A DNA stretch of 64,000 bases, taken from an uncultured Pirellulales bacterium. Lineage in GTDB: Bacteria; Planctomycetota; Phycisphaerae; Sedimentisphaerales; SM23-30. Positions within the stretch are counted from its first letter, which is position 1; each line of letters opens with the position of its first letter. Below the pieces are notes generated by a model. The model saw nothing but the letters and a program-made list of their open reading frames with translations, did no database searches and had not been told where the DNA came from. Of the stretch, positions 1 to 57,760 are shown piece after piece. The DNA lies in assembly GCA_964580995.1 (NCBI GenBank), contig CAZOMV010000001.1:42840-106839 (forward strand), written 5' to 3'. A program made the translations under genes and the position numbers.

Positions 1-31
1 CGTTTCCAGGAATATAAGGAGTTAATTTCTT

Positions 32-1243: not shown

Positions 1244-1279
1244 AGAGATAGAGTATGTCATTTTGAGGAATTAGAGAAA

Positions 1280-2443: not shown

Positions 2444-2508
2444 AAATAACACGCCAAGTGTGAGGTAATGTATTAATATTTTATGGAATGTAGTACAAGT
2501 TTAGCTGA

Positions 2509-3168
2509 ATGGTATACAAGATGCAAATATTTCTCAAGGAAATAGGTAAGAATGTTATAGTCCGCAGGGCGACATTTGATGATATTGACCGTCTGTGTAA
2601 AATATCCAAAGAGTGTTTTCAGAATGATATACAGGATCAGGGTTTGCTATTTATAGCCCGTAAATGGTGGCAGCTACGCATAAATTCAGCCGAGATTGAA
2701 ATAGGGGTAGTTGAAATTGACAATCAAGTGTGCGCTTTTTGTATAATCGTTTTAAATGAGCATCAATGGAAAAAACAAATCCAAAAAAAGAAAATATTAA
2801 AAATACTTTCAATACTTTCATTGTGTAGGCACCTATCTTTATGCAGATTATTTATAATTAAATTATCAAGAAAGATATCTTCTTTTTTCGCTGGTAAAGA
2901 GGAGAATGTAAGTATTAGGACTTTACCCAGAGAAAGAATCAGGATCGAACCTATTGCGGTGGCAAAACGGAATCGCAAATGTGGTCTTGCGAAATTGCTT
3001 TTGCGATGGGCGGAGAATAGGGCATTTGAATCGAATAGAAGGACTATTTGGCTTACTGTGGACAAAAGCAATTATTCTGCCCAATGCCTTTACGAATCTT
3101 TAGGGTATCAACTATTTATGACAACAAAATACCAAGGTTTTTATATGAAACAGGTTGAAAAAAAGTAA
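2509..3168 (+). CDS. GNAT family N-acetyltransferase
   Basis: 219-aa ORF with an acetyl-CoA loop-like RNRKCGLAKLLL and a C-terminal NYSAQCLYESLGY motif. The start may be the ATG at 2521. Confidence 0.6.
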   Translation: MVYKMQIFLKEIGKNVIVRRATFDDIDRLCKISKECFQNDIQDQGLLFIARKWWQLRINSAEIEIGVVEIDNQVCAFCIIVLNEHQWKKQIQKKKILKILSILSLCRHLSLCRLFIIKLSRKISSFFAGKEENVSIRTLPRERIRIEPIAVAKRNRKCGLAKLLLRWAENRAFESNRRTIWLTVDKSNYSAQCLYESLGYQLFMTTKYQGFYMKQVEKK

Positions 3169-3294
3169 AATTGGACAGTGTGGAAAATATACAGGCAGGT
3201 GGTCGTACATTTTGATCCAGAATGGCCATAGCCGGTTGGGTTGGGTAGATGGTTTTTAATGAGATGTGACATATTCTGTGACGGTAAGAATTAA

Positions 3295-4017
3295 ATGTTT
3301 GTTGCTTCCTGGTACATTTATTTTCTCCTTTTGTTTTTTGTACTTTTCGTGTATTTTGTTCTCCCGTGGTTTTGTAGCCGCTGCCAAAGGAGAACCCTGG
3401 CCGCCAAAGCAAAAGTTAATAGAGTATTGGTCTTAAGTATAGATGATGGTCCCGGATGTAGGCTGACACCAAAGATATTGGATATTCTGGCCGAGAACGG
3501 TATCAAAGGATGTTTTTTTCTTTTAGGAAAAAATATTGATGGCCGTGAGGCACTTGTCCGTCGAATTGTAGTAGAGGGGCATGAGATAGGTTCGCATGGA
3601 TACGATCATCTTCATGCTTGGAGAGTTTGTCCTTGGAAGTGCATACAAGATATCAAAAAAAGCTGGCAGGTTATTGACGGTGCCCTTGGAATTCAGCGAG
3701 GCGTATATCCTTTTCGACCGCCTTATGGAAAACTCAACCTTGTAACACTGCTATATCTTTGGTATAAGCGAGTACCTATTGTTTTCTGGACAGTGGATAG
3801 CAACGATACCCGTGATTGGAACAACGACCAAAATTCCTTAGAGATATTGGCAAAGCAATTGGATCATGGGGGTGTTCTTCTGGTACACGATTTTGACCGT
3901 TCCACAAATCAATGTGAACAGTATGTTCTTGATGTGATAAAATTGGCCATTGATATAGCCCAAAAGAATAATCTTAAGATGGTCACCCAGTTTATGCTAA
4001 AAGATAAGTCTTCATGA
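3295..4017 (+). CDS. Polysaccharide deacetylase (NodB homology domain), N-terminal TM anchor
   Basis: Carries the NodB motifs LSIDDGP and GSHGYDH, plus a hydrophobic N-terminus. Confidence 0.8.
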   Translation: MFVASWYIYFLLLFFVLFVYFVLPWFCSRCQRRTLAAKAKVNRVLVLSIDDGPGCRLTPKILDILAENGIKGCFFLLGKNIDGREALVRRIVVEGHEIGSHGYDHLHAWRVCPWKCIQDIKKSWQVIDGALGIQRGVYPFRPPYGKLNLVTLLYLWYKRVPIVFWTVDSNDTRDWNNDQNSLEILAKQLDHGGVLLVHDFDRSTNQCEQYVLDVIKLAIDIAQKNNLKMVTQFMLKDKSS

Positions 4018-4979
4018 ATATACTCGATGTCTCTATCATTATCGTCAACTGGAACACCCGGGATATCCTGCGGGATTGTCTGCGTTCGGTGTATAATCAA
4101 ACACATAATATTAAATTTGAAGTAATTGTTGTGGATAATGCCTCTGCCGATGGCTCGGCGGAGATGGTTAAGTCCGAGTTTCCGCAGGTGATTTTGATCA
4201 AAAACCAGGAAAACCGCGGATTTGCCGCTGCCAATAATCAGGGAATGAAAATTGCAAAAGGGCGTTATATCCTGTTGCTTAATAGCGATACTGTTGTTCT
4301 GGATGGGGCGATACAAAAGACGGTTGCATTTGCAGATCAACATTCGGAAACTGCTGTGGTAGGGTGCAAAGTATTAAATCCGGACAAGACTCTTCAGCCA
4401 ACTTGCTTTATGTTTCCATCTATTTTGAATTTATTTTTATCCAGTACCTACTTATATAAATTATTCCCTAAAAGCCGTTTCTTCGGTCGCGAACGGATGA
4501 CTTGGTGGGATCGAAACGATGTCCGTGAGGTTGCTGTTGTAACCGGTTGTTTTATGCTGGTGCGGCGTGAAGCTATAGAAAAGATAGGATTAATGGATGA
4601 ATCCTACTTTATGTATGCGGAAGAAACCGACTGGTGCTATCGGTTTCTAAAGAATGGTTGGAAAACCCTTTTTTTCCCAAATGCGAATATTATTCACTTG
4701 GGGGGGCAAAGCAGCAAGCAGGTACAAATAAAATCTATAATTCAGCTTCGCCTGGGGATACTTCAATTTATTTGCAAGAACAGGAACACGGTTTATTTTT
4801 GGCTTTCCGGAGTTCTAATTTCGCTATTTTTTTTATTTCGCATCCCCTTGTGGTTATTGATGAGAATTGTAAAACCTGTTGATTGCGATAATCGAAATCG
4901 AGTTAAAGCCTATTTATCAGGATGGTATCGAGTAATAAAAGCAACCTTTAACCCTAAGCCGGAGAATTTTAAGTCATGA
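4014..4979 (+). CDS. Glycosyltransferase family 2
   Basis: VSIIIVNWNTRD...VVDNASADGS...LLLNSDT are GT2 signatures. There is a 4-nt overlap with the upstream gene. Confidence 0.85.
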   Translation: MNILDVSIIIVNWNTRDILRDCLRSVYNQTHNIKFEVIVVDNASADGSAEMVKSEFPQVILIKNQENRGFAAANNQGMKIAKGRYILLLNSDTVVLDGAIQKTVAFADQHSETAVVGCKVLNPDKTLQPTCFMFPSILNLFLSSTYLYKLFPKSRFFGRERMTWWDRNDVREVAVVTGCFMLVRREAIEKIGLMDESYFMYAEETDWCYRFLKNGWKTLFFPNANIIHLGGQSSKQVQIKSIIQLRLGILQFICKNRNTVYFWLSGVLISLFFLFRIPLWLLMRIVKPVDCDNRNRVKAYLSGWYRVIKATFNPKPENFKS

Positions 4980-6328
4980 ATTTTAAAGTTATGGCGCAAG
5001 GGGGTGTCAATCTGATTATTCGTAGATATATGGGGCCATTCTGGTATCGCAGAAGATGGCTGGAAAAAACCCAATGGTGGAGTCAGCAGGAATTGGAATC
5101 GCTCCAACTAATTCTGCTTAAACGGTTAATTTCACACGCATATAAAACTGTGCCGTATTATCGGATACTGATGGATAAACTGAAAATCAGAGTCGAGAAT
5201 ATAAAAACGCTTGATGATATAAAAATGTTTCCTGTGTTTACGAAAGAGAGTGCATTGAAAGCGGGTAATTCTATTGTTTCCAACAAATACCCTTCCTGGT
5301 TACTTCGAAAAACCCACACCAGTGGGACTACGGGAACTCCTTTAATGCTCCGCAGAGATATTTTTTCGATCGAAAATGAACATGCCTTTGTCAGACGTCA
5401 GTGGGATTGGGCCGGATTAGGTATTAATGATCGATGTGCTTATCTCAAAGGTAGGGTACTTGGGGAAAAAGACACAAAGAGTGGTCGTCTTTATGCGTAT
5501 GATCCAATCATGAAAGAATTACATTTGTCTACCTTTCATCTAACGTATAAAACGGCTAAAGAATACGCAGATATAATTAGTAGTTACGGTATAAAAGGCC
5601 TTGTGGGTTATCCATCTGCTGTTAATATACTCGCCAGAGGGTGTTTAGATTCAGGGATTAAACTAAAGTTTCAGTCGGTACTGGTTACTTCTGAGATACT
5701 CACCCAATCAACTAGAGATATAATTAGTAGAGCATTTGATTGTAAGGTATACGATTTTTATGGATCTGCCGAACGGGTAAGCTATATCCATACCTGCGAT
5801 TACGGAAGTTATCATATAGTACCGGAGTACGGCCTTCTGGAACTAATTCCAATTGAGAACAATAAGGATGGAGAATGTAGGTTAATTGCTACTGGTTTCT
5901 GGAACATGGCGATGCCGTTAATTAGATATGATACCGAAGATCTTGTGTATCCTTCCAATGAAACTTGCCAATGCGGTAGGGCATTCCCGGTGATCAAATC
6001 TATTATTGGTAGAGAAGGTGATGTTATTATCACACCTTCTGGCAAAGAGCTAGGTGTGTGCATTATTTCTTATATTGTATATGTTTTGTGTGGCGTCAAT
6101 AACATTATTGAAAGTCAAATCATCCAGGATAATCAAGATCATATTATAATTAACTATGTGCCTGATCAGAAATTCACTTCGGAAGACTTGTCGGAATTTA
6201 AGAATCGTTTAGCCAAATATTTACCAAATGACTTAAAGTTTACTCTACAAAAAGTAGATTCGGTTCAAAAAACAAATGCAGGAAAAATCAAGCCTGTTAT
6301 ATCCTTAATCAGTGGAATGGGAAAATGA
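4976..6328 (+). CDS. Adenylate-forming enzyme, phenylacetate-CoA ligase / CapK-like family
   Basis: TSGTTGTP AMP-binding motif, 450 aa, and a C-terminal KTNAGKIKP lysine motif. Translationally coupled to the GT2. Confidence 0.7.
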   Translation: MNFKVMAQGGVNLIIRRYMGPFWYRRRWLEKTQWWSQQELESLQLILLKRLISHAYKTVPYYRILMDKLKIRVENIKTLDDIKMFPVFTKESALKAGNSIVSNKYPSWLLRKTHTSGTTGTPLMLRRDIFSIENEHAFVRRQWDWAGLGINDRCAYLKGRVLGEKDTKSGRLYAYDPIMKELHLSTFHLTYKTAKEYADIISSYGIKGLVGYPSAVNILARGCLDSGIKLKFQSVLVTSEILTQSTRDIISRAFDCKVYDFYGSAERVSYIHTCDYGSYHIVPEYGLLELIPIENNKDGECRLIATGFWNMAMPLIRYDTEDLVYPSNETCQCGRAFPVIKSIIGREGDVIITPSGKELGVCIISYIVYVLCGVNNIIESQIIQDNQDHIIINYVPDQKFTSEDLSEFKNRLAKYLPNDLKFTLQKVDSVQKTNAGKIKPVISLISGMGK

Positions 6329-6600
6329 TTTTATTTTTGGCTCTTCTGAACAATTTGTGGGTAAATAAATTCAGCGAATTTAACTCAGCAAAATCGTTCG
6401 GGGCCCAGACTGCCAAATTGCCCCCCGTTAGTCCCAATTTGCCAGTCTGCCCAAGCGATTTTGCTGAGAATATCAAGCTGAATTTATTTGAACTAAAAAA
6501 ATATCAATAGAAAACGCCATACGTCATTATGAGTCAATAGGTTACGAGCGAAGCCTCCTAAATTCACCCACAAATTCTTTTGAAGAGGCAATAAAATATG
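6326..6600. repeat. Nested imperfect inverted repeat (about 275 nt palindromic element, MITE- or structured-RNA-like)
   Basis: Inner arms 6363-6420 and 6435-6489 are reverse complements with a few mismatches (aaataaattcagc...ctcagcaaaatcg...cagactgccaaattg). Outer arms 6326-6362 and 6566-6600 pair at about 75%. A 76-nt unpaired insert lies at 6490-6565. Confidence 0.7.
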
Positions 6601-6751
6601 CATCCAATGGATTCGCTTGTATCATAAGGTAGTATAAAAACAAATAGTTTCTTGAAGGGCCGTAGAATGTGAATTTTTAGTGGTTTAAGGTAAATCCTAT
6701 GGGCAATTTTGAAAAATAAAGCCAACATTATGACTGATTAAGAGCCAATAG

Positions 6752-7381
6752 ATGTTAAGATTCCTTGTAATATTAGTATATAAATATCTTAAGAAAAGAA
6801 AAATCCAGGATTTATTCGCGAAACTAATAGCCAGACTTGAAGGTGGGGAGATGTATTCAAAGACAATTCGCGAGATATATAGAAAATATCATGGCATTGA
6901 TGTCGGAAAGTATAGTTATGGTTGTTTTTTCAATGATAGCATAAGGCCTGGTGTAACAATTGGCCGTTATTGTTCAATTTCCAAGAATGTTTCCATTATG
7001 GATGCAAACCATCCTCTCCACCATAAATCAACCCATCCCTTTTTTTATGAACCAAACTATAAATACGTAAAAGAATCTTATGTTCAGCATATACCAATTA
7101 TAATTGAGAATGATGTATGGATCGGAAAAAACAGCATTATAGTACCCAATGTTAGGAAAATTGGAAATGGGGCGGTAATTGCGGCGGGGGCGGTAGTTAC
7201 TAAAGATGTTCCGAGTTATGCCATCGTAGCAGGTAACCCAGCTAAAGTTATTCGCTTTAGATTTCAACAAGAGGTTATTGATAAACTACAGAAAGAGCAG
7301 TGGTGGCAATATGACATCGAAAATTTAGTGCCAGATATCACAAAGTTTACACACTTCGAAGAGTATATTTGTTCTGATTAA
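6752..7381 (+). CDS. Hexapeptide-repeat (XAT/CatB-related) O-acetyltransferase
   Basis: [15 protein letters not shown] plus left-handed beta-helix repeats ([11 protein letters not shown].., [13 protein letters not shown]). Confidence 0.8.
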
Positions 7382-7390
7382 GTATATCTA

Positions 7391-8311
7391 ATGGAAATAA
7401 AAGATTTAACTTCAAATTATGTAATTGTTACTCCAGCTTATAACGAAGAAAAATACATTCGTCAAGCAATTGACAGTGTGCTTGCTCAAACTATTCAGCC
7501 GTTATTATGGGTAATTGTGGATGACAGTTCAATGGATCAGACTGCGGATATTATAAAGCGTTATGCTGCTAAATATCCATGGATTCGCTATGTATATAGA
7601 AAAAAAGAAAGCAACCAGAGTTACTATGCCAGTAATGTTTATGCAATATTTAAAGGATTAAAAGAAATAGAATTATCAGATTATGATTATCTGGCGATTT
7701 TGGATGCCGATATCGAATTACCTGCTAATTATTATGAGGAAATATTTAAGCTATTTACTCAAGACAAGCGGTTGGGTATTGCGTCGGGTCATTGTATGGA
7801 TCGAGTTGGGGATATATTAAAAAAAGGATTATACGATTGGAGGTCAGCGCCTAAAAATGTTATGGTTTTTCGTAGGCAATGTTATGAGGATATAGGTGGC
7901 TTCATTCCTTTAAAATATGCTGGAGAAGATACTTGTGCCTGTTTTATGGCACGAATGAAAGGTTGGACAACCTGGGCCACAACAAATCTGATGGTGATTC
8001 ATAATAAGCCAATGGGTACAGGTCATGTTAATAGTCGGATTAAAATTCGCTTTCGGCAAGGTCTCGGAGAGTATTTTTTAGCAACTCACCCATTATTTAT
8101 GCTTTTAAAATCATTGAGACGCTGTGTAAAAGAGCCTCCGTATTTTACTGGAGGATTGGCACTTTTGACCGGATTTGTTTATGCTCATTTTATAGGCCAG
8201 AAACGACAAATCTCAGATGAACTTGTGAAATATATTCGAAAAGAGCAACTTAGGCGTATATTTAGGGGAAATCAAGTTCCGGTTGAATTTGAGATAAAGA
8301 CGGAAATATGA
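7391..8311 (+). CDS. Glycosyltransferase family 2
   Basis: VIVTPAYNEEKYI...VIVDDSSMDQT...ILDADI are GT2 signatures. Confidence 0.8.
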   Translation: MEIKDLTSNYVIVTPAYNEEKYIRQAIDSVLAQTIQPLLWVIVDDSSMDQTADIIKRYAAKYPWIRYVYRKKESNQSYYASNVYAIFKGLKEIELSDYDYLAILDADIELPANYYEEIFKLFTQDKRLGIASGHCMDRVGDILKKGLYDWRSAPKNVMVFRRQCYEDIGGFIPLKYAGEDTCACFMARMKGWTTWATTNLMVIHNKPMGTGHVNSRIKIRFRQGLGEYFLATHPLFMLLKSLRRCVKEPPYFTGGLALLTGFVYAHFIGQKRQISDELVKYIRKEQLRRIFRGNQVPVEFEIKTEI

Positions 8312-8766
8312 ACAACCGAAAATTTTGCCTGGTAGCCTCTGCCGGCGGTCATATTACACAATTACTTAAACTGGCAGATTGCTGGAGCGGCTGTGAGGCG
8401 GTGGGGATTACAACTACGGAAGTGGTTCGGGCGAAACTAGAGCAATTCGGTCCGGTATATGTTCTCGGTGAGTCGAATCGTGAACATCTCCTCCGGGTGA
8501 TCCGGCAGATATTTCGCTGTTATCAAATTCTGTGTAAGGAAAAACCAAGTGTAATAATCAGTACCGGCGCTGCTGTTGGTTGTATTGCCTGTTTTCTCGG
8601 CAAATTCCTTGGTGCAAAAGTTATCTGGATTGACAGTATTACCAATGTGGAAAGATTGTCGCTTTCCGGCAGGATGGTACGTTATATTGCAGATCTGTTT
8701 TTAGTACAATGGCCGGAGTTGGCAACAAAATATAAAAGAGTTGAGTATGCGGGGGCGGTGATATGA
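8308..8766 (+). CDS. Alg14-like membrane-anchoring subunit of a split glycosyltransferase (PssD/Cps14F-like)
   Basis: 152 aa with LVASAGGHITQLLKL and a GAAVG motif. ATGA overlap with the upstream GT2, and 4-nt overlap with the Alg13-like partner. Confidence 0.65.
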   Translation: MNNRKFCLVASAGGHITQLLKLADCWSGCEAVGITTTEVVRAKLEQFGPVYVLGESNREHLLRVIRQIFRCYQILCKEKPSVIISTGAAVGCIACFLGKFLGAKVIWIDSITNVERLSLSGRMVRYIADLFLVQWPELATKYKRVEYAGAVI

Positions 8767-9242
8767 TCTTTCTTACTGTGGGAACGCAATTCCCTTTTGA
8801 CCGGTTGGTAAAAGAAGTGGATCAGGCAGTTGATCGTGGGTTGGTGGGCGATGAAATCTTTGCCCAAATCGGCCAAAGCAGTTATCAACCGCGCAATTTT
8901 CCGGCGGTTTCAACACTGGACAAACACGCTTTTGATGGTAAATTTCGGCAGGCTTCTGCTATCATCAGCCATGCCGGGATGGGTTCGATTACTATGGCGC
9001 TGGAATACCAGAAGCCGATGCTGGTCATGCCCCGCCGCAAGAAATTCCATGAGGTCGTGAACGATCATCAGATCAGTATCGCCAAAGAATATGAAAAGTC
9101 CGGTTATATCCTGGTTGCCTATTCCGAAGCTGAATTAGCCGATAAACTTGCTGATTTGAAAACATTCATCCCGAAAAGACGAGTGGCCCAGCCGGAAGCG
9201 GTAGTCAGGCGGATAAAAGATTATCTTGGTTCATTAGGTTGA
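8763..9242 (+). CDS. Alg13-like catalytic subunit (Glyco_tran_28 C-terminal domain; PssE/Cps14G-like)
   Basis: MIFLTVGTQFPFDRL...ISHAGMGSI is typical of the MurG/Alg13 C-terminal domain. Confidence 0.7.
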   Translation: MIFLTVGTQFPFDRLVKEVDQAVDRGLVGDEIFAQIGQSSYQPRNFPAVSTLDKHAFDGKFRQASAIISHAGMGSITMALEYQKPMLVMPRRKKFHEVVNDHQISIAKEYEKSGYILVAYSEAELADKLADLKTFIPKRRVAQPEAVVRRIKDYLGSLG

Positions 9243-9329
9243 GATTCCTACTCTATGAATGTTTGTAAAAATTGTCGGTGGCATATCTGATGGAATAATG
9301 GTTCTATCCCGATAACCCTAGAGGTCCCC

Positions 9330-10442
9330 ATGAAAAAACTAATCCACGTGGCGGGTGCCCGCCCGAATTTTGTAAAGATTGCCAGTATCATCAAAGCCTG
9401 CCAGGCTCGCCCGGAGCTAGACAATCTGCTGGTTCATACCGGTCAGCATTACAGTCCCCAGATGAGCGATTCTTTCTTCTGCGACCTGGGCATCCCGCAG
9501 CCGGATATCAATCTGGAGGTTGGCTCCGGCTCGCACGCCCAGCAGACGGCGGAGATCATGAAGCGGTTCGAGCCGGTCCTGCTGGAGCATCAGCCGGACG
9601 CGGTGTTGGTGGTGGGCGATGTGAATTCCACCGTGGCGTGCGTCTTGACGGCGGTGAAGCTGGGGATCCAAACGATCCATGTCGAGGCGGGCCTGCGCAG
9701 CCATGACCGGACTATGCCCGAGGAAATCAACCGGGTCGTGACCGACGCCATCAGCGACATCCTGTTTGTGACCGAACAAAGCGGCCTCGATAATCTGGTG
9801 CGGGAAGGCGTCGCCAGAGAGAAGATTCACCTGGTGGGCAATGTGATGATCGATACGCTGCTTCAGAACCGGGCGAAAGCCGATCAATCCCGGATTCGGG
9901 AAACACTCGGCCTGACCCAGGGTGAATTTGCGGTGATTACCATGCACCGTCCCTCCAATGTCGATAATCACCAGGTGTTCGGCCGGATTCTCGATGCCTT
10001 TGAGGTCATCCAGCGGGACATGAAAATGGTCTTTCCGGTCCACCCCCGGACCCTCAAAAACATGCAGTCGAACGGACTCTATGCCCGGATCAAGAGCCTG
10101 CCCAACTTTGTGCTGGCCGAACCGCTGGGGTATCTGGATTTCCTGAAACTGATGGCGGACGCCAGTATCATTATTACCGATTCCGGCGGGATCCAGGAGG
10201 AATCCACCATCCTGGGTATCCCCTGCCTGACGGTCCGCGAGAATACCGAGCGGCCCGTTACCATTACCAGCGGGACCAATCAACTGGTCGGGGTCCAGCC
10301 GGAAAATATCCTTGCCGGCTATCGCAAGGCCCGTGCGGGAGAAATCCCGGCCCGGGTGCCGCCGCTCTGGGACGGCAAGGCGGCCGAGCGGATCGCGAGG
10401 ATCCTGGCGGATATGCCGGACCGCCATGTTGCCAAAGGATAA
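9330..10442 (+). CDS. wecB: UDP-N-acetylglucosamine 2-epimerase (non-hydrolysing)
   Basis: Full-length match by eye: HVAGARPNFVKIA, HTGQHY, VHVEAGLRS, TDSGGIQEE. Confidence 0.92.
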   Translation: MKKLIHVAGARPNFVKIASIIKACQARPELDNLLVHTGQHYSPQMSDSFFCDLGIPQPDINLEVGSGSHAQQTAEIMKRFEPVLLEHQPDAVLVVGDVNSTVACVLTAVKLGIQTIHVEAGLRSHDRTMPEEINRVVTDAISDILFVTEQSGLDNLVREGVAREKIHLVGNVMIDTLLQNRAKADQSRIRETLGLTQGEFAVITMHRPSNVDNHQVFGRILDAFEVIQRDMKMVFPVHPRTLKNMQSNGLYARIKSLPNFVLAEPLGYLDFLKLMADASIIITDSGGIQEESTILGIPCLTVRENTERPVTITSGTNQLVGVQPENILAGYRKARAGEIPARVPPLWDGKAAERIARILADMPDRHVAKG

Positions 10443-10478
10443 ATAAGACGCCAGCGTCAAAAGCTCGTCGTCCCCTTG

Positions 10479-10745
10479 TTATCTATCCAAGATATTCATG
10501 CCCTTGAGAGGCATGGTGCCATGATGGACCGCATAGTGACATTCCCGGCAGAGTGTCAGAAGGTTATTTTCCGTATTATCTCCTCCCTGTGATCTAGGCT
10601 TAATGTGATGCATCTGGAGATGACGGTGGCTGCCGCAGAGCTGGCAGGTGAATTCATCCCGCCAGAGGATTTCGATCATAATCTCCTTCTGACGCCAGCG
10701 ATACTGGGTAGGATCGGTGTTCCGGAATGTCTTGTGTCTTCTCAT
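10479..10745 (-). CDS. HNH endonuclease
   Basis: 88 aa with CQLCG...HHIKPRSQGGDNTENNLLTLCRECHYAVHH. 4-nt overlap with the upstream ORF. Confidence 0.85.
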   Translation of the reverse strand: MRRHKTFRNTDPTQYRWRQKEIMIEILWRDEFTCQLCGSHRHLQMHHIKPRSQGGDNTENNLLTLCRECHYAVHHGTMPLKGMNILDR

Positions 10746-11344
10746 GGGCGAGCCTTGGTGGATGGATCCAATCCGATCCCAGCCAGATAATCGGCCGCGA
10801 TCAGCTCGATGGCGTAGGTTTCACTTTCGGAATCTGTCTCCAGGTTGACGGCCTTGATGGCTTGGTTGATGACTACCCACTGGGAAGGAGAAAAAAACCA
10901 TACTTTGCGTATGGTCTGGGCTTCCGGATCGGCTGGTTGCCCCAGCGCTATGGCAACTTGTCTTTTGACTTCTTTGAGCGGCAGATCCTCCTGAATGGTC
11001 TTTGAGACGAGCCTCTTGGCCTGCTCGGCATTGTCCAAACGAAAAATCTCCAGCCCCTTGGAAATATCGAGCTTGGCGACCTTCTGGGCAGGGATGTTGA
11101 ATTTTTTGGCCTTGCGGACCATGCAGATCAGATAATTGGCCCAGCGCGGACTGACCCCCAGGCGGTCTTCCACATAGCGTTGGAAGTTAGGAAATCCCAA
11201 CTCCCGATAGGCCAGAGACAACTGGATTTCGGAGAGCACCTGGCCCATCTGGAGCCAGTTACGACAAACCTGGTCTTTGATACGCATGACTTCCTGGTCC
11301 AGTTTCCGGGCTTGTTCTGAAGGTTGAGGTGGTTTGGCTGACAT
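10742..11344 (-). CDS. Hypothetical HTH protein (DUF3102/ParB-HTH-like by eye), phage/plasmid-type
   Basis: 200 aa. An N-terminal coiled segment is followed by W-x-MGQVL...GF-x-FQRYVEDRLGVSPRWANYLICMV. The assignment is tentative. Confidence 0.4.
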   Translation of the reverse strand: MSAKPPQPSEQARKLDQEVMRIKDQVCRNWLQMGQVLSEIQLSLAYRELGFPNFQRYVEDRLGVSPRWANYLICMVRKAKKFNIPAQKVAKLDISKGLEIFRLDNAEQAKRLVSKTIQEDLPLKEVKRQVAIALGQPADPEAQTIRKVWFFSPSQWVVINQAIKAVNLETDSESETYAIELIAADYLAGIGLDPSTKARP

Positions 11345-11386
11345 TTTCCATCGGTCTCATAAAAGGGAATTATCGCATGGGCTGTT

Positions 11387-12157
11387 TTAGGTGGCCATTG
11401 CGGTTGTCGGTTCGGTGGCCTGTTCGGCATCGAAGGTCTGTTGGATGTCCGCGAGTCCGTAGCGACGCAGAAGGCCTTTGAGTTGGCGGTGCCGTGCCGA
11501 GGTTTTGGAGATCCACTGTGGATCGCTGAAACGGGCCACGTAGTACGCAAAGCTTCGCCCCTGGAAGAGTTGCGAGGACAATGTGATGCTGCAGTCGAAC
11601 AGGTCATTCTTGCCGGCGTTGATGACCTCCTGGCACATGGAAAGGAACTGACGGGCCGAGCGCAGGGAGTGGCCCTTGAGGCTGATCCAGAACGGCAATT
11701 CATCTTCTTCCAGAATGCCCAGAAAGCTCCAGGTCTCCTGGCACAAGGGCGAACAACGGCGGCCGTCATAGAACCGCCAGGCCGCCAGCGGGCATTCGGG
11801 AACGAACCAGCCGTCACTGTTCCAGTGACCACAGGTTTCCGCCTTGGGCTTTTCGATGATATCCATGGGCCGGCGGCCATCATTGCTCTTGCAGGCAGGC
11901 AAAATGTCCTGGCCGTCTTCGAAGTAGACCCGTCCCCGCCGCCACAGGAGGATGTTGGCCCGGAGGCTCTGGTATTCCTGGCCGGAAAAGGTATTGCGGA
12001 AGAAGCCCGGCTGCAGGCCCAGCCGGCTGTTGGGCTGATTAAGCATAAAACGCCGGATGACTAGGTCACTTTCGTGCAATCGGTCGCCAGATGCCTTGCT
12101 CTTCATGGTTTTCTGTCCGTTATTTTTGGGTGACTGGTTCTTGTTTGGCTTTTTCAT
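11387..12157 (-). CDS. Hypothetical Cys-rich protein (no family recognised)
   Basis: 256-aa ORF in an operon between the nuclease and the HTH gene, with 8 Cys clustered in the central region. Overlapping ORFs on other frames are judged spurious. Confidence 0.5.
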   Translation of the reverse strand: MKKPNKNQSPKNNGQKTMKSKASGDRLHESDLVIRRFMLNQPNSRLGLQPGFFRNTFSGQEYQSLRANILLWRRGRVYFEDGQDILPACKSNDGRRPMDIIEKPKAETCGHWNSDGWFVPECPLAAWRFYDGRRCSPLCQETWSFLGILEEDELPFWISLKGHSLRSARQFLSMCQEVINAGKNDLFDCSITLSSQLFQGRSFAYYVARFSDPQWISKTSARHRQLKGLLRRYGLADIQQTFDAEQATEPTTAMAT

Positions 12158-12217
12158 GGTTTTGCTCGCTTTCTTTTTGTCTTGGTTTACAACATGTTTC
12201 CTGGAAAGTTGCGTACT

Positions 12218-13132
12218 TTAAACGACCTTTTTGAGTGCCGGTGTCGGCAGATTCTCCTGTTTGACCCTGAAATTGGTGCCGCAGGCGTATCTGTACGGAC
12301 ACGCCTCGCAGCCGCCGTACAGCGACGACGGGTTCCAGAAAAATCCGCCCGCCCGGATGGCGGCAATGATGCGGGCTATGGCCTGGGCACCTTCCACCAG
12401 GTGATCACTGGTGACCGGGATGCAAATCCGAGGATCGCCGCGTAGATCGCCGGCTTGATATTTGCTGCCGTCGCCGTGCCGACCGGCTCGCTTGTAGGGA
12501 ATCAGATTGACAAGCTTGTACAGCACGCAGTTTTGCAGGTAGCCCGGCAGGATGTCTTTGGCCGGCCGCCATTGGTCATCTACGAAGACCTCCCCGGTTA
12601 CGGCACACCAGCAGTACAGGCAGAGTTGAATGTTTCGTTGGAGGCTGGACAGCGCTGGCAAGGTGGCGCTGGTTTTGAATTCATAGATCTCATACCCGCT
12701 CCCGTCGGCGGCAGGCCGAACCTGGTCAATGATGCCCTCGACGGTGTACTCGCGGCCTGAGCGGCTGCGGAGGACACCCCGGACGGGCAGTTCGGCAAAA
12801 AGGATGCTGGATTCATGCTCCTTCTCGACGTAGTTTTCCATGGCCATACGCCAGTCCTGGTATTCCCGGTCGATCTCCTCGGTTGTGGCGTTAATGGGTG
12901 GGCCGGTGCGGCTGATTTCCTCGGTCCAGATATCCTCGAACAGCAACTGCCAGCTATTCCAGAGTCCTTCTTCGTGGAGGCAACGGATGATGCGGTGGAT
13001 GGCGGCACCGCGGGTTTGGCTGAGGCTGCGGAACTGGGGTTCGGTCCCCTGGAGTTTCAGCAGCAGGGCCTGGGGACAGGCCAGATAGTCATTGATTTGC
13101 GATTGACGGTAAGGGCCTTCGAGTCGTACCAT
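12218..13132 (-). CDS. PD-(D/E)XK nuclease, Cas4/RecB-like with C-terminal Fe-S cysteine cluster
   Basis: Motifs GIIDQV, EIYEFKT (D...ExK), QLCLYCW (QxxxY) and CEACPYRYAC (CX2CX5C), plus an N-terminal Cys (YLACPQ). I prefer the ATG at 13132, preceded by AAGGAGA, over the TTG at 13195. Confidence 0.75.
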   Translation of the reverse strand: MVRLEGPYRQSQINDYLACPQALLLKLQGTEPQFRSLSQTRGAAIHRIIRCLHEEGLWNSWQLLFEDIWTEEISRTGPPINATTEEIDREYQDWRMAMENYVEKEHESSILFAELPVRGVLRSRSGREYTVEGIIDQVRPAADGSGYEIYEFKTSATLPALSSLQRNIQLCLYCWCAVTGEVFVDDQWRPAKDILPGYLQNCVLYKLVNLIPYKRAGRHGDGSKYQAGDLRGDPRICIPVTSDHLVEGAQAIARIIAAIRAGGFFWNPSSLYGGCEACPYRYACGTNFRVKQENLPTPALKKVV

Positions 13133-13325
13133 AATAATTCTCCTTTTCTTTTCGACTGCAAAGTTTGCAATTGACGTTTCATAAATCCTTGACAATAAAA
13201 CATTTAAAAATTAAACGAATATGCTTTTTCCAATGGAGCCTGAAGCATTTTGCTGAAATAGAAAGTCAAATATTCTCACAATTTTTTCCTTCAAAAATCA
13301 GTAGCTAAAAATAACTGACATATTA

Positions 13326-13353
13326 AATATATACTGTGAGTTACATTTGTCAA
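13326..13353 (-). promoter_or_regulatory. Candidate sigma70 promoter for the nuclease operon (TTGACA-16-TATATT)
   Basis: On the minus strand, TTGACA lies at 13353-13348 and TATATT at 13331-13326, within an AT-rich divergent intergenic region. Confidence 0.35.
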
Positions 13354-13389
13354 ATAAAAAATGTTAAAAATAATTACTTTTTGATATTA

Positions 13390-13418
13390 TTGACTTATCC
13401 GTCGTTATAGGCTACATT
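13390..13418 (+). promoter_or_regulatory. Candidate sigma70 promoter for the repressor gene (TTGACT-17-TACATT)
   Basis: TTGACT at 13390-13395 and TACATT at 13413-13418. The -10 element overlaps the palindrome TACATttaacATGTA (13413-13427). Confidence 0.4.
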
Positions 13419-13458
13419 TAACATGTACTTCTCATAACCCGGTGACAGGAGATTACCA

Positions 13459-14085
13459 ATCAAGGATGAGCTATCCGAAAATCTGAAGAGGCTCAGGAAG
13501 TATAAAGGCCTCACCCAAAACGACTTGGCTGACCAAGTTGGCTGCACCCGTGCTTATATTAGTCGCTTGGAAAGTGGCGATTGCGCGGCATCGATGTCCG
13601 TTTTGGAAAAGCTCTCTGAGGTTCTGGAAGTATCTTTTCCGGAATTGTTTGGTCCCTCCGAGGCTAGTTCAAGTTTGACCGGAGATTCGGCAAAGACGGT
13701 CATTCTCAATGATCCTGCCTTGCCCAGTTTGGTTTCCCCTCTTAACAGGGAAGCAGGTCGCGATGGTTTCCAGATGCCCAGCCTCCAGGCCCGTGATTCC
13801 TTTGCTCTCTATCTGCCGGACGACTCGATGGCCCCGGAGTTTGCCCGGGGTGATTTGGTGGTTTTTTCCCACAGCCGCTCGCCGGCCGATGGGGACGCCT
13901 GCCTGGTCGAGGATGGCCAGGGGCAGATTCTCTTTCGCACCGTATGGGCCTTGCCGGGAGGGGGCTGGGGCCTTAAGGCCAGCCATCCCCGGTATGAGCC
14001 GCTGGTGGTCAAGGGCAAAGGCGTAAAGCTCTGGCCGGCAATAGGGCATTGGCGGAAGCTGGGAGAAAAACGCCGGCGGTCATAA
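13459..14085 (+). CDS. XRE-HTH + S24 peptidase (LexA/CI-like) repressor; start codon unresolved or frameshifted
   Basis: The HTH (LSENLKRLRKYKGLTQNDLADQVGCTRAYISRLESG) begins upstream of the first in-frame TTG (13525). S24 motifs are present: LPDDSMAPEFARGDLVVF and a downstream Lys. No ATG, GTG or TTG lies in frame between the stop at 13435 and the HTH. Confidence 0.75.
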   Translation: MKDELSENLKRLRKYKGLTQNDLADQVGCTRAYISRLESGDCAASMSVLEKLSEVLEVSFPELFGPSEASSSLTGDSAKTVILNDPALPSLVSPLNREAGRDGFQMPSLQARDSFALYLPDDSMAPEFARGDLVVFSHSRSPADGDACLVEDGQGQILFRTVWALPGGGWGLKASHPRYEPLVVKGKGVKLWPAIGHWRKLGEKRRRS

Positions 14086-14291
14086 GTCTCAGACGAAAAA
14101 AAGGATACAGCATCCAAACCGCAGGACTCGGTTAATTTTTTTGCAATAAAAATTATTTCTCTTATTACGATCTGGCTTGCCAGTTTATAATAGATAATAG
14201 AGAAGTTTTTTCGGTCGGCGAACGGACGAAGCGGAAATCTTGGGATCGGGATAGGTGGTTACGCCGGCGCTAAGGAAAAGGAGTAGCACGA

Positions 14292-14834
14292 ATGATTTCG
14301 GAAAGGCAATTGAAAGCAAACCGGAGCAATGCGATGGCGTCCACGGGCCCGAAAACCGCATCCGGCAAAGAGAAGGTCTCTCAAAACGCCCGCAAGCACG
14401 GCCTGCTGTCCCAGCATGTCGTCATCTGTGATGAAAGCCAGGCCCAGTTTAACCGCTTTCGCCAGGAGCTGCTCGACCAACTGGAGCCGGTCGGGTCCCT
14501 GGAGGAAGTCCTGGCCGACCGGCTTGCCGCTTCTGTCTGGCGGCTCCATCGGGTCGGGCGCATTGAGGTGGAATTGTTGCAGGATATTTATTTGAGCGAA
14601 ATCAGGTCCGGAAGCGATAAAGACTCTGAGCTCCCCACCTTGGGCGAAGCGATACGTTCCGATTTGGTTAATCAGAGCACGCTGTCCAAGTTTCATCGGT
14701 ATGAAGCCCATATCGAACGAGGTCTTTTCCGCACTCTGCACGAGCTGCAGCGGCTCCAGGCCGCCCGCAAGGGCCAGCCGGTAACGGCGCCCGCAGTCCT
14801 CGATATCGATGTCACGGGCATACCGGAAGAGTAA
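14292..14834 (+). CDS. Conserved hypothetical protein (N-terminal ANRxNAxxSTGPKTxxGKxxxSxNAxKHGL motif)
   Basis: 180 aa with a GGAG SD upstream. I recall the N-terminal motif from uncharacterised proteins of several soil and aquatic phyla. The equal-length antisense ORF is judged spurious. Confidence 0.5.
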   Translation: MISERQLKANRSNAMASTGPKTASGKEKVSQNARKHGLLSQHVVICDESQAQFNRFRQELLDQLEPVGSLEEVLADRLAASVWRLHRVGRIEVELLQDIYLSEIRSGSDKDSELPTLGEAIRSDLVNQSTLSKFHRYEAHIERGLFRTLHELQRLQAARKGQPVTAPAVLDIDVTGIPEE

Positions 14835-15110
14835 AGAAATATTCATAAATATTTGATAATAAATTACTTATATTGACTTTGGAAGCTAGAGATAGGTGGC
14901 AGGTCTTTTCCGATTCAAGGTACGAGCGCCGTTTTACCCGCTGGTAAAAACAGGTGGTTTCCGGTGTGGATAACCAGCCACCACAGCGATGGACGCCGAT
15001 CCAAAAATTACCAAACAAACCCATTTGCGAAGTCAGGTATTCTTCTGTTGTCTGACACCGTAGATTACCGAGAACAGAACTTATCACACATCGGGTACTA
15101 CTTGTAAAAG

Positions 15111-17147
15111 ATGGCTCATCAATCCCATAATATTACGAATATCCAGGCGATCATCCTGGCCGGCCGGTCGGATTTCGGGCGGCGGCCTTTGCCGTCGCGG
15201 TTACCGCCGGCCCTGTGGCCGGTAGGGGGGCAGCCGGTCTTGGAGCGGCTGCTGCGGCATCTGGACTGCTGCGGGATCAGGCAGATCTCGATCTGCGGCA
15301 ACAGCGACGGGGCTATCCTGCGTCAGGCGGTAGAACGCATGGATGGGATCCGGGCGGCAGTGCGGTTTTCGCCGGAAATTTTGCCGCTGGGGCCGGCCGG
15401 TGTGATCGTCCGGACCGTTCAGCAGGCCCCGCATTCCCTGATCCTGCTGTGCAATGCCTGTACGGCCTGTCCGCCGGACCTGCGTTTTCTCATACAGGAG
15501 CATCAAAAGGCCCGAGCGGCCATGACTGTGGCCCTTAACCCCAAAGCCGCTGTCCTTAGTTCAACCGAGGCCGCCGATCTCTATCTGCTGGAACCGACGG
15601 TCCTGGAACAGATCCCCCGGGCCGGTTACTGTGATATTAAGGAAACCTTGATCCCGGCCCTGCTGCGGGCCGGCAAAACCGTACATGCCGTCCGGCTCCC
15701 CCAGCCGGTCGGCAATTTCCGCACCTGGTCCGGCTACCTGCGGGCTATGGCGGATTATCTGGAACAGCACCAACCCGACCAACCCGGCCAACCCGACCAA
15801 CCCGACCGGCCCGGCAAAAACTTCTCCGCCCCCCAGTCCCAAGCTCGCGATGGGGTCTGGGTCAGTCCGCGGGCGGAAGTCCATCCCAGTGCCCGGCTGT
15901 ACGGACCGGTTCTGGTCATGGAGGGTGCAATGGTCGCGGCCGACGCGGTCCTGGTCGGCCCGTGTATCCTCGAAAAAAATGCCGCCGTTGGTCCCGGCAG
16001 CCTGCTAACCGGCAGTGTGCTCTGGCCGGAGGCCCGGATCGGCAGCGGCTCTCAGGTGCGGGACTGTGTCGTGGAACACCAGGCGGTAGTGCCGGATGGA
16101 AAAATTCGGGAGGAACAAATGGTACAAGTAGAGCGAAAAGGTGTTTTACCCCAATGGATCAACCGGGCGGCCGAAAATATGAATAAAAAGATAAACAAGA
16201 TTTTCTCGCTGCCGCCGGAGGTAAAAGACGCAAAGGGTCTGAAACCACTGTACGGGATTCCATCGGGTGCGTTCAGCCGTTCCCGCTGGCCCCTCCTTTG
16301 GGTGGTTCCGGTCCTGCTGGCCTTTCTGTGGTCCCACTGGCCGACCCTGACGGACCTCTGGAAAATCTGGATGCAGAGCGATGAGTATTCCTGCGGACTG
16401 CTGGTCCCCTTCATGGCTATTTATATCGTCTGGTCCCGGCGGGGCCAGTTGGCCCAGTGTCTCTCCCATCCTTCCTGGTGGGGCTTGGCGGCCTTCCTGG
16501 CTGCCCAAAGCCTGCGGTATTTTGGCTTGTTTTTCATGTACGGTTCCGCGGAGCGGCTTTCCCTGGTGGCCAGTATCGCCGCCCTGGTGTGGTTCCTGTT
16601 CGGCGGGGCGGTATTCCGTAAATTGATTCCCATATTTATCTTTCTGGGCCTGATGCTGCCCTTACCCAAAACGCTGGAGGCCGCCATCACTATGCCTTTG
16701 CAGAGTATGGCCACCACCTCCGCGGGCTTCTGTCTGGAAATGATCGGCTATGATATCCGGATCGAAGGCAACATCATCCATCTGGGCCAGACCACCGTGG
16801 CGGTGGCGGAAGCCTGCAACGGCCTGCGGATGGTCACCTCCTTCTTCGTGATCAGCGGGCTGGTAATCCTGCTGGTGAACCGCCGCTGGTGGGAGAAAGG
16901 GATCCTGCTGCTCTCGGTTCTGCCGATCGCCCTGTTATGTAATACGATTCGTCTGGCGATTACCTCCATCGCCTTTACCATACTCAAGGGGGAAAAATGG
17001 GAACAACTGTTTCATGATTTCGGGGGCTATGCCATGATGCCGCTGGCGCTGGCGCTGGTGGTTCTGGAATTGTGGATACTCAAAAAAATCTTTACCGTGC
17101 CTGATGAAGAAACCAATCAGGAAATCCTGATTACCTCTGCCAGGTAA
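15111..17147 (+). CDS. Fusion protein: nucleotidyltransferase-like + left-handed beta-helix N-terminal module, C-terminal exosortase (EpsH/Xrt family)
   Basis: The C-terminal roughly 290 aa carry exosortase hallmarks: DEYSCGLLVP, AVAEACNGLRM (Cys-x-G-x-R), LCNTIRLA and FHDFGGYAMM, with multiple TM segments. The N-terminal roughly 380 aa resemble sugar-1-P nucleotidyltransferase (IILAGRSDFGRRPL...) followed by hexapeptide repeats. It is a single uninterrupted frame. Confidence 0.8.
   Translation: MAHQSHNITNIQAIILAGRSDFGRRPLPSRLPPALWPVGGQPVLERLLRHLDCCGIRQISICGNSDGAILRQAVERMDGIRAAVRFSPEILPLGPAGVIVRTVQQAPHSLILLCNACTACPPDLRFLIQEHQKARAAMTVALNPKAAVLSSTEAADLYLLEPTVLEQIPRAGYCDIKETLIPALLRAGKTVHAVRLPQPVGNFRTWSGYLRAMADYLEQHQPDQPGQPDQPDRPGKNFSAPQSQARDGVWVSPRAEVHPSARLYGPVLVMEGAMVAADAVLVGPCILEKNAAVGPGSLLTGSVLWPEARIGSGSQVRDCVVEHQAVVPDGKIREEQMVQVERKGVLPQWINRAAENMNKKINKIFSLPPEVKDAKGLKPLYGIPSGAFSRSRWPLLWVVPVLLAFLWSHWPTLTDLWKIWMQSDEYSCGLLVPFMAIYIVWSRRGQLAQCLSHPSWWGLAAFLAAQSLRYFGLFFMYGSAERLSLVASIAALVWFLFGGAVFRKLIPIFIFLGLMLPLPKTLEAAITMPLQSMATTSAGFCLEMIGYDIRIEGNIIHLGQTTVAVAEACNGLRMVTSFFVISGLVILLVNRRWWEKGILLLSVLPIALLCNTIRLAITSIAFTILKGEKWEQLFHDFGGYAMMPLALALVVLELWILKKIFTVPDEETNQEILITSAR
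15771..15815 (+). repeat. 9-nt tandem repeat (caacccgac x about 5) encoding a QPDQPGQPDQPDRPG linker
   Basis: Read directly from the sequence. It lies between the nucleotidyltransferase-like and LbH parts. Confidence 0.9.
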
Positions 17148-57486: not shown

Positions 57487-57760
57487 TCCTTTGCTCTTTT
57501 CCCCTATAAGCAGTACATGGGGTTTACTGAAAAAGTCACAAATTGGACGGAACCGCCAAAAGTCGTTATTGGCTTCCAAAAACGGTTCTGGCTCCCCAAT
57601 AACCAGGGGACAACGAGCGTTTGACGCTGGCGTCAATTTTACCTGAAAAACGCGGTGGAAAATAGAATCCCTTCTTATGGGATTTCCTTTTGCCCCCTGG
57701 CGAATACGAGGTTAAAATAAAGTTGATATTTGTTACTTCATGGCAGGCTGATGTTTATGG

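Follow-up and report, generated by a model that had tools for sequence, protein, structure and literature searches.

A probable phage-derived cassette of repressor, nuclease and DNA-binding genes in polysaccharide loci of a Planctomycetota clade

Results

A six-gene cassette lies between wecB and an exosortase gene

The stretch of DNA analyzed here (the window: 64,000 nt of contig CAZOMV010000001.1, from an uncultured Pirellulales bacterium) carries, between wecB and an exosortase gene, a cassette of six genes in which a repressor gene faces a minus-strand operon for two nucleases and two DNA-binding proteins, and a further gene, p180, follows the repressor. In the order of transcription, the operon encodes a predicted exonuclease of 304 amino acids (aa) (12218-13132), a beta-rich, four-cysteine protein of 256 aa termed p256 (11387-12157), a helix-turn-helix (HTH) protein of 200 aa termed p200 (10742-11344), and an HNH endonuclease of 88 aa (10479-10745). 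The CI-like repressor (13459-14085) and p180 (180 aa; 14292-14834) are encoded on the plus strand. An initial annotation of this DNA, made from the sequence letters and a list of open reading frames (ORFs), had described the four operon genes and a divergent repressor. All five ORFs are present at their given positions in the ORF list, and those genes stand, but the set was incomplete in that p180 lies beyond the coordinates given. The tight spacing noted for the operon is real; the HNH start overlaps the p200 stop by 4 nt, and the remaining gaps are 42 and 60 nt.

The cassette genes have a GC content of 53-59%, and the cassette as a whole is host-like in this respect. The ORF list and Pfam gave no integrase, transposase, replication or packaging gene in the cassette, no tRNA gene was found at it, neither direct nor inverted repeats flank it, terminal repeats and att sites are likewise absent, and the window holds no phage structural gene within about 20 kb of it. 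The initial annotation had likewise reported host-like GC content and no integrase, capsid, terminase or att repeats, all of which was confirmed in the window. An intact or recently integrated prophage was rejected on the lack of an integrase, large terminase, portal, capsid, tail, att repeats and tRNA target. Three long ORFs that overlap the cassette genes (11128-11883, 11441-12064 and 14259-14846) were treated as artefacts of high GC content; the last is antisense to p180, and its homologs are mere antisense images of p180 homologs.

The gene set is conserved as a unit

We recovered genomic contexts of p256 and p200 relatives, numbered L001, L003, L008 and so on, and scanned them with the window proteins. 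The order found in the window, with the repressor facing exonuclease-p256-p200-HNH, recurs in about 13 independent contexts at 42-90% aa identity to the window. The set is carried by metagenome-assembled genomes (MAGs) and by metagenome contigs, most of them labeled Planctomycetota or Planctomycetaceae, together with one complete Phycisphaerales chromosome (L001); two MAG records (L011 and L012) are labeled Anaerolineales. Synteny elsewhere was the test that the initial annotation had set for its own proposal, and the gene set is indeed conserved as a unit. No capsid, portal, large-terminase or integrase gene was found in the related loci, and a lone small-terminase gene is present in L027.

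Between the window and its closest relative, L008, the ratio of nonsynonymous to synonymous divergence (dN/dS) is 0.13-0.17 for the exonuclease, p256 and p200 genes and 0.105 for the HNH gene, with synonymous divergence (dS) of 0.3-0.6. The corresponding values between L003 and L026 are 0.14-0.22 and 0.52, with dS of 0.41-0.51. Ratios of this kind point to purifying selection on the operon genes, and to a cassette that is commonly intact and constrained. They also bear on the simplest alternative, that chance left an inert piece of decayed prophage in the locus. The cassette genes all have a phage character, two loci (L018 and L027) carry decayed versions, and the window repressor lacks a canonical start codon, as might be expected of such a fragment. 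However, the same genes stand in the same order across the 13 or so contexts, with catalytic residues intact and dN/dS of 0.10-0.22 in close pairs (the exception being the HNH gene of L003 and L026); independent decay would not give identical boundaries, and identities of 42-67% exclude near-clonal carriers. We consider this explanation largely refuted and give it next to no weight. A retained module rather than an intact prophage, as the initial annotation had preferred, agrees with the contexts that lack structural genes and with the signs of purifying selection.

The operon proteins have phage-type relatives

Distant relatives of every operon protein occur in phage replication or recombination modules. 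The exonuclease matches the Pfam family PDDEXK_1 (E 4.9e-17; 63.1 bits against a cut-off of 22), and Cys19, D136, E151-x-K153, Q169..Y173 and C275-x2-C278-x5-C284 are invariant among 10 orthologs, a pattern that reads as the signature of a Cas4/AddB-type PD-(D/E)XK nuclease with a four-cysteine iron-sulfur (Fe-S) cluster motif. The initial annotation had seen a Cas4/RecB-like nuclease with a CX2CX5C motif here, an assignment that holds once the start is corrected. Given that AAGGAG stands 7 nt upstream of ATG 13132 and that the orthologs are all 303-308 aa long, this ATG, rather than TTG 13195, is the most likely start. Cas4 shares the nuclease fold, the catalytic motifs and the four-cysteine cluster with the cassette exonuclease, but Cas4 models are about 180 aa long, as against 304 aa. 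Identity as a CRISPR-associated Cas4 was rejected (TIGR00372, 21.9 against a cut-off of 65), and neither the window region nor the related loci contain cas genes or CRISPR arrays.

The HNH protein, named as such by the initial annotation, matches Pfam HNH (E 2.8e-12; 47 bits against a cut-off of 21.4), and the motif CQLCG...HHIKP...N...CRECH can be read in its translation. Its gene is present in every cassette, though gene callers overlooked it in some loci, and in L001 it is fused to the p200 homolog. This fusion and the 4-nt overlap in the window argue that p200 and the HNH protein are coupled, in the window at the level of translation.

The initial annotation had described p200 as DUF3102/ParB-HTH-like. 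The second half of this description was borne out by fold, while DUF3102 was not, there being no Pfam match at E<=0.1 (HTH_ParB and ParB_N included) and no NCBIfam match. The AlphaFold model of p200 (mean confidence, pLDDT, 78.7) begins with a single long helix and superposes on the DNA-binding domains of ParB and Noc (6y93, 6sdk and 7bnr) with a Foldseek probability of 1.0 and a root-mean-square deviation of 2.8-4.1 A over about 105 residues. Judged by fold only, p200 is thus predicted to be a ParB-type HTH DNA-binding protein. Unlike the ParB family, p200 has no N-terminal ParB/Srx CTP-binding (CTPase) domain, it is coupled or fused to an HNH nuclease, and the cassette has no partition ATPase. 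Its 63 relatives are distributed like those of p256. A match to phrog_17202 (E 2e-14) and an hhalign probability of 96.5% with a protein of Vibrio phage PG28, whose gene adjoins RecA and junction resolvase genes, connect p200 with phages; a comparison with gp63 of Gordonia phage Amore2 was rejected (hhalign probability 0.3).

For p256, in which the initial annotation had recognized no family, direct searches also gave no match in Pfam (E<=0.1), NCBIfam, PADLOC or PDB sequences. Only 41 close relatives, all of about 255 aa, were found among 5.8 billion proteins, and Cys89, Cys109, Cys122 and Cys139 are invariant in the family alignment. A search with the p256-family profile reached 585 proteins at E<=1e-3 among 1.84 billion representatives. 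All 10 distant relatives tested match Pfam PF23977 (Pam3_Gp34) at E 1e-13 to 7e-5, seven of them above its 27-bit cut-off, and nine match phrog_5686 and/or phrog_2402, both of unknown function; p256 itself has no PF23977 match at E<=0.1. A structural model of p256 matched 48 uncharacterized viral proteins in BFVD at E<=1e-3 and, weakly, two kinds of PDB structure: RPA70-type oligonucleotide-binding (OB) folds with zinc (E about 0.01) and phiC31 gp3 (TM score 0.35-0.40).

By profile and fold, p256 appears to be a distant branch of the phage Pam3_Gp34 (PF23977) superfamily, a family with no known function, and it is probably a DNA-binding partner of the exonuclease. The superfamily is shared with gp64 of Gordonia phage Amore2, gp57 of Demosthenes and gp34 of cyanophage Pam3; unlike these proteins, p256 falls below the Pfam model and has four invariant cysteines. 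Relatives in Gordonia phages adjoin helicase, DnaQ, sliding-clamp and RusA genes, Pam3 gp34 sits between a Gam-like nuclease inhibitor and a helicase, and the nearest outgroup relative is followed by a full-length ParB gene downstream. The combination of genes in the cassette is absent from sequenced phages, to judge from searches with p256 and the exonuclease. No p256 relative was found in IMG/VR, and tblastn with p256 and the exonuclease found none in GenBank phages. Three other identities for p256 were tried and rejected: a phiC31 gp3-type recombination directionality factor (PF18897; hhalign probability 0.4, with gp3 matching PF18897 and p256 not), a single-strand annealing protein of the RecT/Red-beta, ERF, Rad52 or Sak4 kind (no such match in Pfam, PHROG, NCBIfam or PDB), and the 'rubredoxin-type fold protein' of Vibrio phage PG28 (hhalign probability 0.3).

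The sixth gene has mobile-element relatives

Homologs of p180 adjoin the repressor on the same strand in most loci (L001, L003, L009, L017, L026, L033 and, in two copies, L016). In the window, p180 has its own promoter-like region downstream of a terminator-like hairpin (14117-14133). No domain was recognized in p180 by Pfam, PHROG, PADLOC or NCBIfam. Its family comprises 493 relatives across the PVC superphylum (Planctomycetota, Verrucomicrobiota and Chlamydiota), and elsewhere these adjoin large-terminase and integrase genes, or a gene for HTH_17, an excisionase-type HTH. The family, which is unannotated, is associated with mobile elements. In L022 (7001-7579) and L023 (7001-7540), p180 relatives immediately follow a large-terminase gene or have HTH_17 and primase-like genes nearby. 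Family motifs can be seen at the N-terminus (ANRxNAxxSTGPxTxxGK..NAxKHGL) and the C-terminus (RYEAHIER..LHELQRLQ). A relationship of p180 to the L027 small terminase was rejected (hhalign probability 0.3).

The repressor is probably not of the self-cleaving type

The repressor matches HTH_3 (31.2 bits against a cut-off of 23) and Peptidase_S24 (35.1 against 23.3), in keeping with the HTH and S24 domains named by the initial annotation. The autopeptidase activity named with them, and SOS induction through LexA-type self-cleavage, fared less well. The position aligned with K156 of E. coli LexA is Arg in seven of seven repressor orthologs, the nucleophilic Ser of S24 (in DDSM) is kept in five of the seven and is Ala in L011 and L016, and the linkers of the seven have no conserved Ala-Gly cleavage site. 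Given these three features, classical RecA-type SOS cleavage is doubtful, and the S24-like domain is more likely to be a dimerization or sensor domain.

The mechanically listed repressor ORF, which starts at TTG 13525, lacks the first HTH helix, whose codons lie upstream in the same frame. This frame opens at 13438, AGGAG stands at 13447-13451, and after 7 nt an ATC follows at 13459, which is the probable, non-canonical start. No variant of the start region was found in contigs of four metagenome sequencing runs. An out-of-frame ATG at 13466 encodes just MSYPKI*.

No other cassette protein is as poorly conserved as the repressor, whose orthologs share 40-50% identity with that of the window. 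Comparison of L003 with L026 gives 84-89% identity for the core proteins and 57% for the repressor, with a repressor dS of 1.39 against 0.41. A difference of this size suggests that the repressor is swapped between otherwise similar cassettes and that, together with its operators, it varies like the immunity types of phages.

The divergent region carries variable operators and a conserved palindrome

The exonuclease and repressor genes are separated by 326 nt (13133-13458) in an AT-rich stretch (38% GC across 13001-13500). The initial annotation had described about 325 nt with back-to-back promoters, and candidates for both are present. A sigma-70-type promoter, TTGACA-16-TATATT, is directed toward the operon (13353 to 13326, minus strand; 11 of 12 matches), and its -35 element overlaps that of a promoter-like site directed toward the repressor (13347-13374, plus strand; 10 of 12 matches). 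A further promoter-like site lies at 13390-13418 (9 of 12 matches). A 14-nt inverted pair (13318-13331 and 13413-13426; 86% complementary) provides candidate operators. When the divergent regions of eight loci were aligned by eye, all loci compared had a canonical CTTGAC-N17-TATAAT-like promoter toward the nuclease operon. Inverted repeats stand on both sides of this promoter, and their sequence is particular to each locus.

One element of the region is conserved. The 17-bp palindrome ATTGCAAACTTTGCAGT (13155-13171, minus strand), with an invariant core TGCAAACTTTGCA at 13157-13169, lies 9 nt upstream of the operon Shine-Dalgarno sequence (13140-13145). It is single-copy in the window and present in L003, L006 (two copies), L008, L009, L011, L033 and others; in L011/L065 and L033, two copies bracket the repressor gene. 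Its outer positions change without compensation, which fits a protein-binding DNA site better than an RNA hairpin. ParB, Noc and KorB bind sites of the type represented by this palindrome near the cassette promoter, and because p200 is the conserved ParB-type HTH protein of the cassette, the palindrome is probably its binding site. A metagenome scan for the palindrome together with a Shine-Dalgarno sequence gave 47 matches, with a gene start behind the site just in nine cassette loci. A role as part of a wider regulon, such as a host LexA box, found no support, the remaining matches of the scan, which covered AAGGAG-linked sites, looking like chance. Tandem arrays with a 45-nt period, whose unit holds the 13-mer TGCAAACTTTGCA, were seen in four unrelated metagenome contigs (L035, L041, L045 and L070) with no cassette genes near.

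The regulatory genes might have been kept as a device for control of the exopolysaccharide (EPS) genes, with the CI/SinR-like repressor and the ParB-like protein acting on polysaccharide genes and the nucleases as passengers. The repressor HTH does resemble SinR and the C proteins of restriction-modification systems (its best PDB sequence matches include C.BclI and C.AhdI), and the location within EPS loci is constant. Against this, operators and palindrome were found just inside the cassette, and the nucleases are as constrained as the DNA-binding proteins. We regard such a device as very improbable.

The operon is sharp-edged and can be rearranged

Between the window and L008, DNA homology sets in some 20 nt ahead of the palindrome and stops at the end of the HNH gene, at its stop codon, past which the two sequences are unrelated. 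Judged from this comparison, the operon is a discrete, sharp-edged block, and the immunity module (p180 and the repressor) appears to be a separately exchangeable one. No motif downstream of the HNH gene is shared across loci. In the window, the stop codons of wecB and HNH are separated by 36 nt (10447-10482, plus strand) that form a truncated dispersed repeat resembling repetitive extragenic palindromic (REP) elements. In contigs of four rock-metagenome runs mapped to the region, contig depth was 235 at the repeat, against about 7.5 in its flanks. A full second copy is present at 57599-57634 (minus strand), and the repeat occurs in at least 30 other contig contexts, where it continues with TGGGGAGCCAGAGCTGTTTTTGGAAGTCAA, a stretch missing beside the cassette; the full form reads GACGCCAGCGTCAAAMGCTCGTYGTCCCCTKGTTATTGGGGAGCCAGA... 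The break at the HNH stop falls in the loop of a small hairpin, TCCCC...GGGGA. This configuration suggests that a REP-like element was interrupted at the cassette edge, a sign of a recombination junction at the HNH end. The predicted RNA fold of the repeat is not significant (z-scores of -1.5 and -0.9), it has no Rfam match, and no copy was found in other cassette loci or in viral contigs.

Some loci depart from the common arrangement. Just cassette remnants are left in L018. In L027, a Terminase_2 small-terminase gene (5611-6422) stands in place of the repressor and exonuclease genes, with the last 37 exonuclease codons kept and p256-p200-HNH intact, which hints that phages with a homologous module recombine with the cassette. 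In L009, from a Planctomycetaceae MAG, p256'-p200-HNH is directly duplicated (8913-10200 and 11794-13080; duplicate identities 91% and 72%) around an AAA_14/DUF4143 gene, and positions 1-140 are the same as 8714-8853. The same MAG has further p256 fragments at contig ends (L015), so that it holds several partial cassette copies. These states indicate that the cassette can be lost or rearranged.

An alternative is that the cassette is a selfish element, either a pared-down mobile or addictive one or what is left of a phage satellite, in which repressor loss would unleash toxic nucleases and which would spread by homologous recombination or by phages. Consistent with this explanation, both boundaries are sharp and both flanks variable, repressor and operators diversify in the manner of phage immunity types, p180 relatives elsewhere have terminase and integrase genes as neighbors, the L027 cassette has taken up a small-terminase gene by recombination, and one MAG holds the partial extra copies of L009 and L015. 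However, the cassette has no integrase, transposase, replication or packaging genes and no terminal repeats, and searches detected it neither outside polysaccharide loci nor in IMG/VR or among the phages of GenBank. Moreover, addiction would account for selection on the repressor, but not for dN/dS of 0.1-0.2 on the four operon genes. We therefore consider a selfish element unlikely.

The cassette is tied to polysaccharide loci

The embedding of the cassette in an EPS/exosortase locus, pointed out by the initial annotation, is real and nearly general: clear polysaccharide genes lie within a few kb in 11 of about 13 contexts. Neighbors include wecB, glycosyltransferases, Wzy, Poly_export, exosortase/EpsI, PGA_cap, CapK and deacetylases, as well as FemAB-like acetyltransferases, a pyruvyl transferase and a NusG paralog. 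L011 is flanked by sulfate-activation genes, and the flanks of the remaining contexts are too short to read. The specific neighbors differ between loci and the polarity is constant, with the glycosyltransferase-rich part past the HNH end and exosortase, export or locus-edge genes past the repressor/p180 end. In the window, the glycosyltransferase/acetyltransferase block at 1-9300 has 33-45% GC, as against about 55% elsewhere (52-64% in the rest of the locus), which suggests that these polysaccharide genes were recently acquired. The shift in GC content falls at the wecB start, at about 9330.

The constant address raises the question of whether the cassette acts on its surroundings, as a recombination engine of the EPS locus in which breaks at the edge of the glycosyltransferase region would help incoming or paralogous DNA to replace polysaccharide genes (serotype switching). 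The operon is always directed to the glycosyltransferase-rich side, and the flanks change right after the HNH stop, even between cassettes that are 85-90% identical; the HNH-side GT28C (Glyco_tran_28_C) and Alg14 proteins of L008 and the window are 54-58% identical. The adjacent low-GC block of the window, the L009 duplication of p256'-p200-HNH that flanks an inserted gene, and a layout of exonuclease plus DNA-binding partner like that of phage recombination systems would also fit. On the other hand, variable flanks are equally expected for any gene in a hypervariable locus, p256 is not recognizable as an annealing protein of the RecT, Red-beta, ERF or Rad52 kind, and no repeated target site occurs elsewhere in the locus (the palindrome being single in the window). 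We consider a recombination engine unlikely, as we do a selfish element.

In L003, an AAA_14/DUF4143 gene and an AbiEii gene (1865-4206) lie a few kb from the cassette, inside the polysaccharide locus, and genes of defense and mobile-element types thus share the neighborhood of the cassette.

Other features of the window

Upstream of the cassette, the window encodes acetyltransferases, a deacetylase, glycosyltransferases, Alg14/Glyco_tran_28_C and wecB. Downstream are an exosortase-nucleotidyltransferase-like fusion, Wzz/kinase, a priming sugar transferase, a large tetratricopeptide-repeat (TPR) protein, Poly_export and rmlABCD. In the exosortase fusion (15111-17147), the EpsH-type part (residues of about 400-667) is preceded by an N-terminal domain of some 380 aa, which is similar to a nucleotidyltransferase with hexapeptide repeats. 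The exosortase falls below the cut-off of every named subtype, the best being XrtD (161.6 bits against 400). At 57761-58421, two small overlapping ORFs (112 and 136 aa) resemble, from their translations alone, a nucleotidyltransferase/HEPN (DUF86-type) toxin-antitoxin pair. No Rfam family was found across the whole window.

Discussion

Our data make it highly probable that the cassette is a phage-derived early region, composed of an immunity module and a DNA-processing operon, that is kept by selection in the polysaccharide loci of a Planctomycetota clade. A fuller account, which includes the mechanism and a role in conflict, is put forward tentatively. The genes present, their conservation as a set, the purifying selection, the affinities to phages, the limits of the modules and the layout of promoters and operators are observations, whereas the biochemical activities, the match of p200 to the palindrome, the inducing signal and the role are inferred.

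In the mechanism that we propose, p180 and the CI-like repressor would form the immunity module. The repressor would bind the locus-specific inverted repeats around the strong sigma-70-type promoter and keep the operon silent. The second module, for DNA processing, would be the operon that begins at the conserved palindrome. Its products p200 and HNH may form a site-directed nicking or cutting enzyme, in which p200 probably recognizes the palindrome. The Cas4/AddB-type Fe-S exonuclease would resect 5' ends, and p256 would bind the resulting DNA. Derepression by some signal, probably not through RecA-driven self-cleavage, would then lead to DNA cutting and resection. As to the biological role, we rank conflict with phages or incoming DNA highest (superinfection immunity and/or nuclease defense), though as a possibility that we hold somewhat short of probable, because the repressor region diversifies like immunity types and the L027 cassette has recombined with phage DNA. 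The variable EPS region may be the hotspot of the genome for phage interaction and gene transfer. We consider less likely than any of the possibilities above, apart from an EPS regulator and an inert fragment, that the cassette is an integral component of these loci, a domesticated, repressor-gated break or recombination engine bringing about the wholesale exchange of surface-polysaccharide genes by an HNH cut guided by the ParB-type HTH, Cas4-type resection and a novel type of DNA-binding partner at the edge of the glycosyltransferase region, or a wholly new defense system that travels with such loci.

Several observations weigh against the proposal of a selected conflict module. Loss is tolerated, as the remnants in L018 show, and in L027 the small-terminase gene has displaced both repressor and exonuclease. 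The window repressor frame contains no ATG, GTG or TTG before the HTH. The palindrome is missing from two cassette lineages (L001 and L016) and hence is dispensable. p256 has no characterized relative, and the confidence of its model is medium (pLDDT 68.6). PADLOC-DB 2.0, a check suggested by the initial annotation, gave no system-level match to a known defense system; generic HNH, Cas4 and HTH matches and weak ones to capH and control proteins were obtained, and p200, p256 and p180 matched nothing. No RNA runs containing the stretch were found. Finally, a defense role alone leaves the near-exclusive address in EPS loci unexplained.

The cassette is of a known kind, in that it is a repressor-controlled phage recombination or nuclease module kept in a chromosome. 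The lambda Red genes exo-bet-gam, and recET with racR in the Rac prophage of E. coli, are early recombination operons under a CI-type repressor. As predicted for the cassette, these systems combine a divergent CI-like repressor with an early operon for a 5'-3' exonuclease and a DNA-binding partner. Modules of the Rac type can also be likened to the cassette in being retained in the chromosome without structural genes and silent unless derepressed. Unlike lambda Exo and RecE, the cassette exonuclease is of the Cas4/AddB Fe-S PD-(D/E)XK type; in place of RecT, Red-beta or ERF, the partner is p256, and the cassette further encodes a ParB-type HTH protein and an HNH nuclease. Unlike lambda Red and recET, the cassette is conserved across deeply diverged genomes and tied to polysaccharide loci.

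Other comparisons are less close. Repressor-gated anti-phage systems and the C proteins of restriction-modification systems place a small HTH regulator beside nuclease genes, as does the cassette, which, unlike restriction-modification and CapP systems, has neither a methyltransferase nor a CapP-type protease. A phage satellite like the phage-inducible chromosomal islands (PICIs) was rejected, as just the repressor-like part is present, and an integrase, a replication initiator or primase and packaging-redirection genes are not. Full-text literature searches (exosortase/HNH/prophage; PF23977; Cas4-like/HNH/ParB-like/satellite) gave no description of the cassette, and the founding paper on PEP-CTERM/EpsH mentions no nuclease, repressor or phage gene. 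Its novelty lies in its composition, in how deeply the six genes are conserved together and in the link with polysaccharide loci.

Few parts of bacterial genomes vary as much, or are as exposed to phages, as the loci for surface polysaccharides. To our knowledge, the turnover of their genes is understood in no more than a handful of model pathogens. Across a poorly studied phylum, such loci are here physically linked to a cassette of nuclease and DNA-binding genes, probably derived from phages, which appears to be under selection and to diversify like phage immunity types. If the cassette is a module for defense or superinfection immunity, it would be a new system, built in part from two families of unknown function, those of p256 and p180. 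If instead it drives recombination, it would amount to a novel way in which serotypes diversify, with the cassette serving as machinery dedicated to varying a cell-surface locus. In either case, the cassette would place the PF23977 superfamily, and the pairing of a ParB-type HTH protein with an HNH nuclease, in a functional context for the first time.

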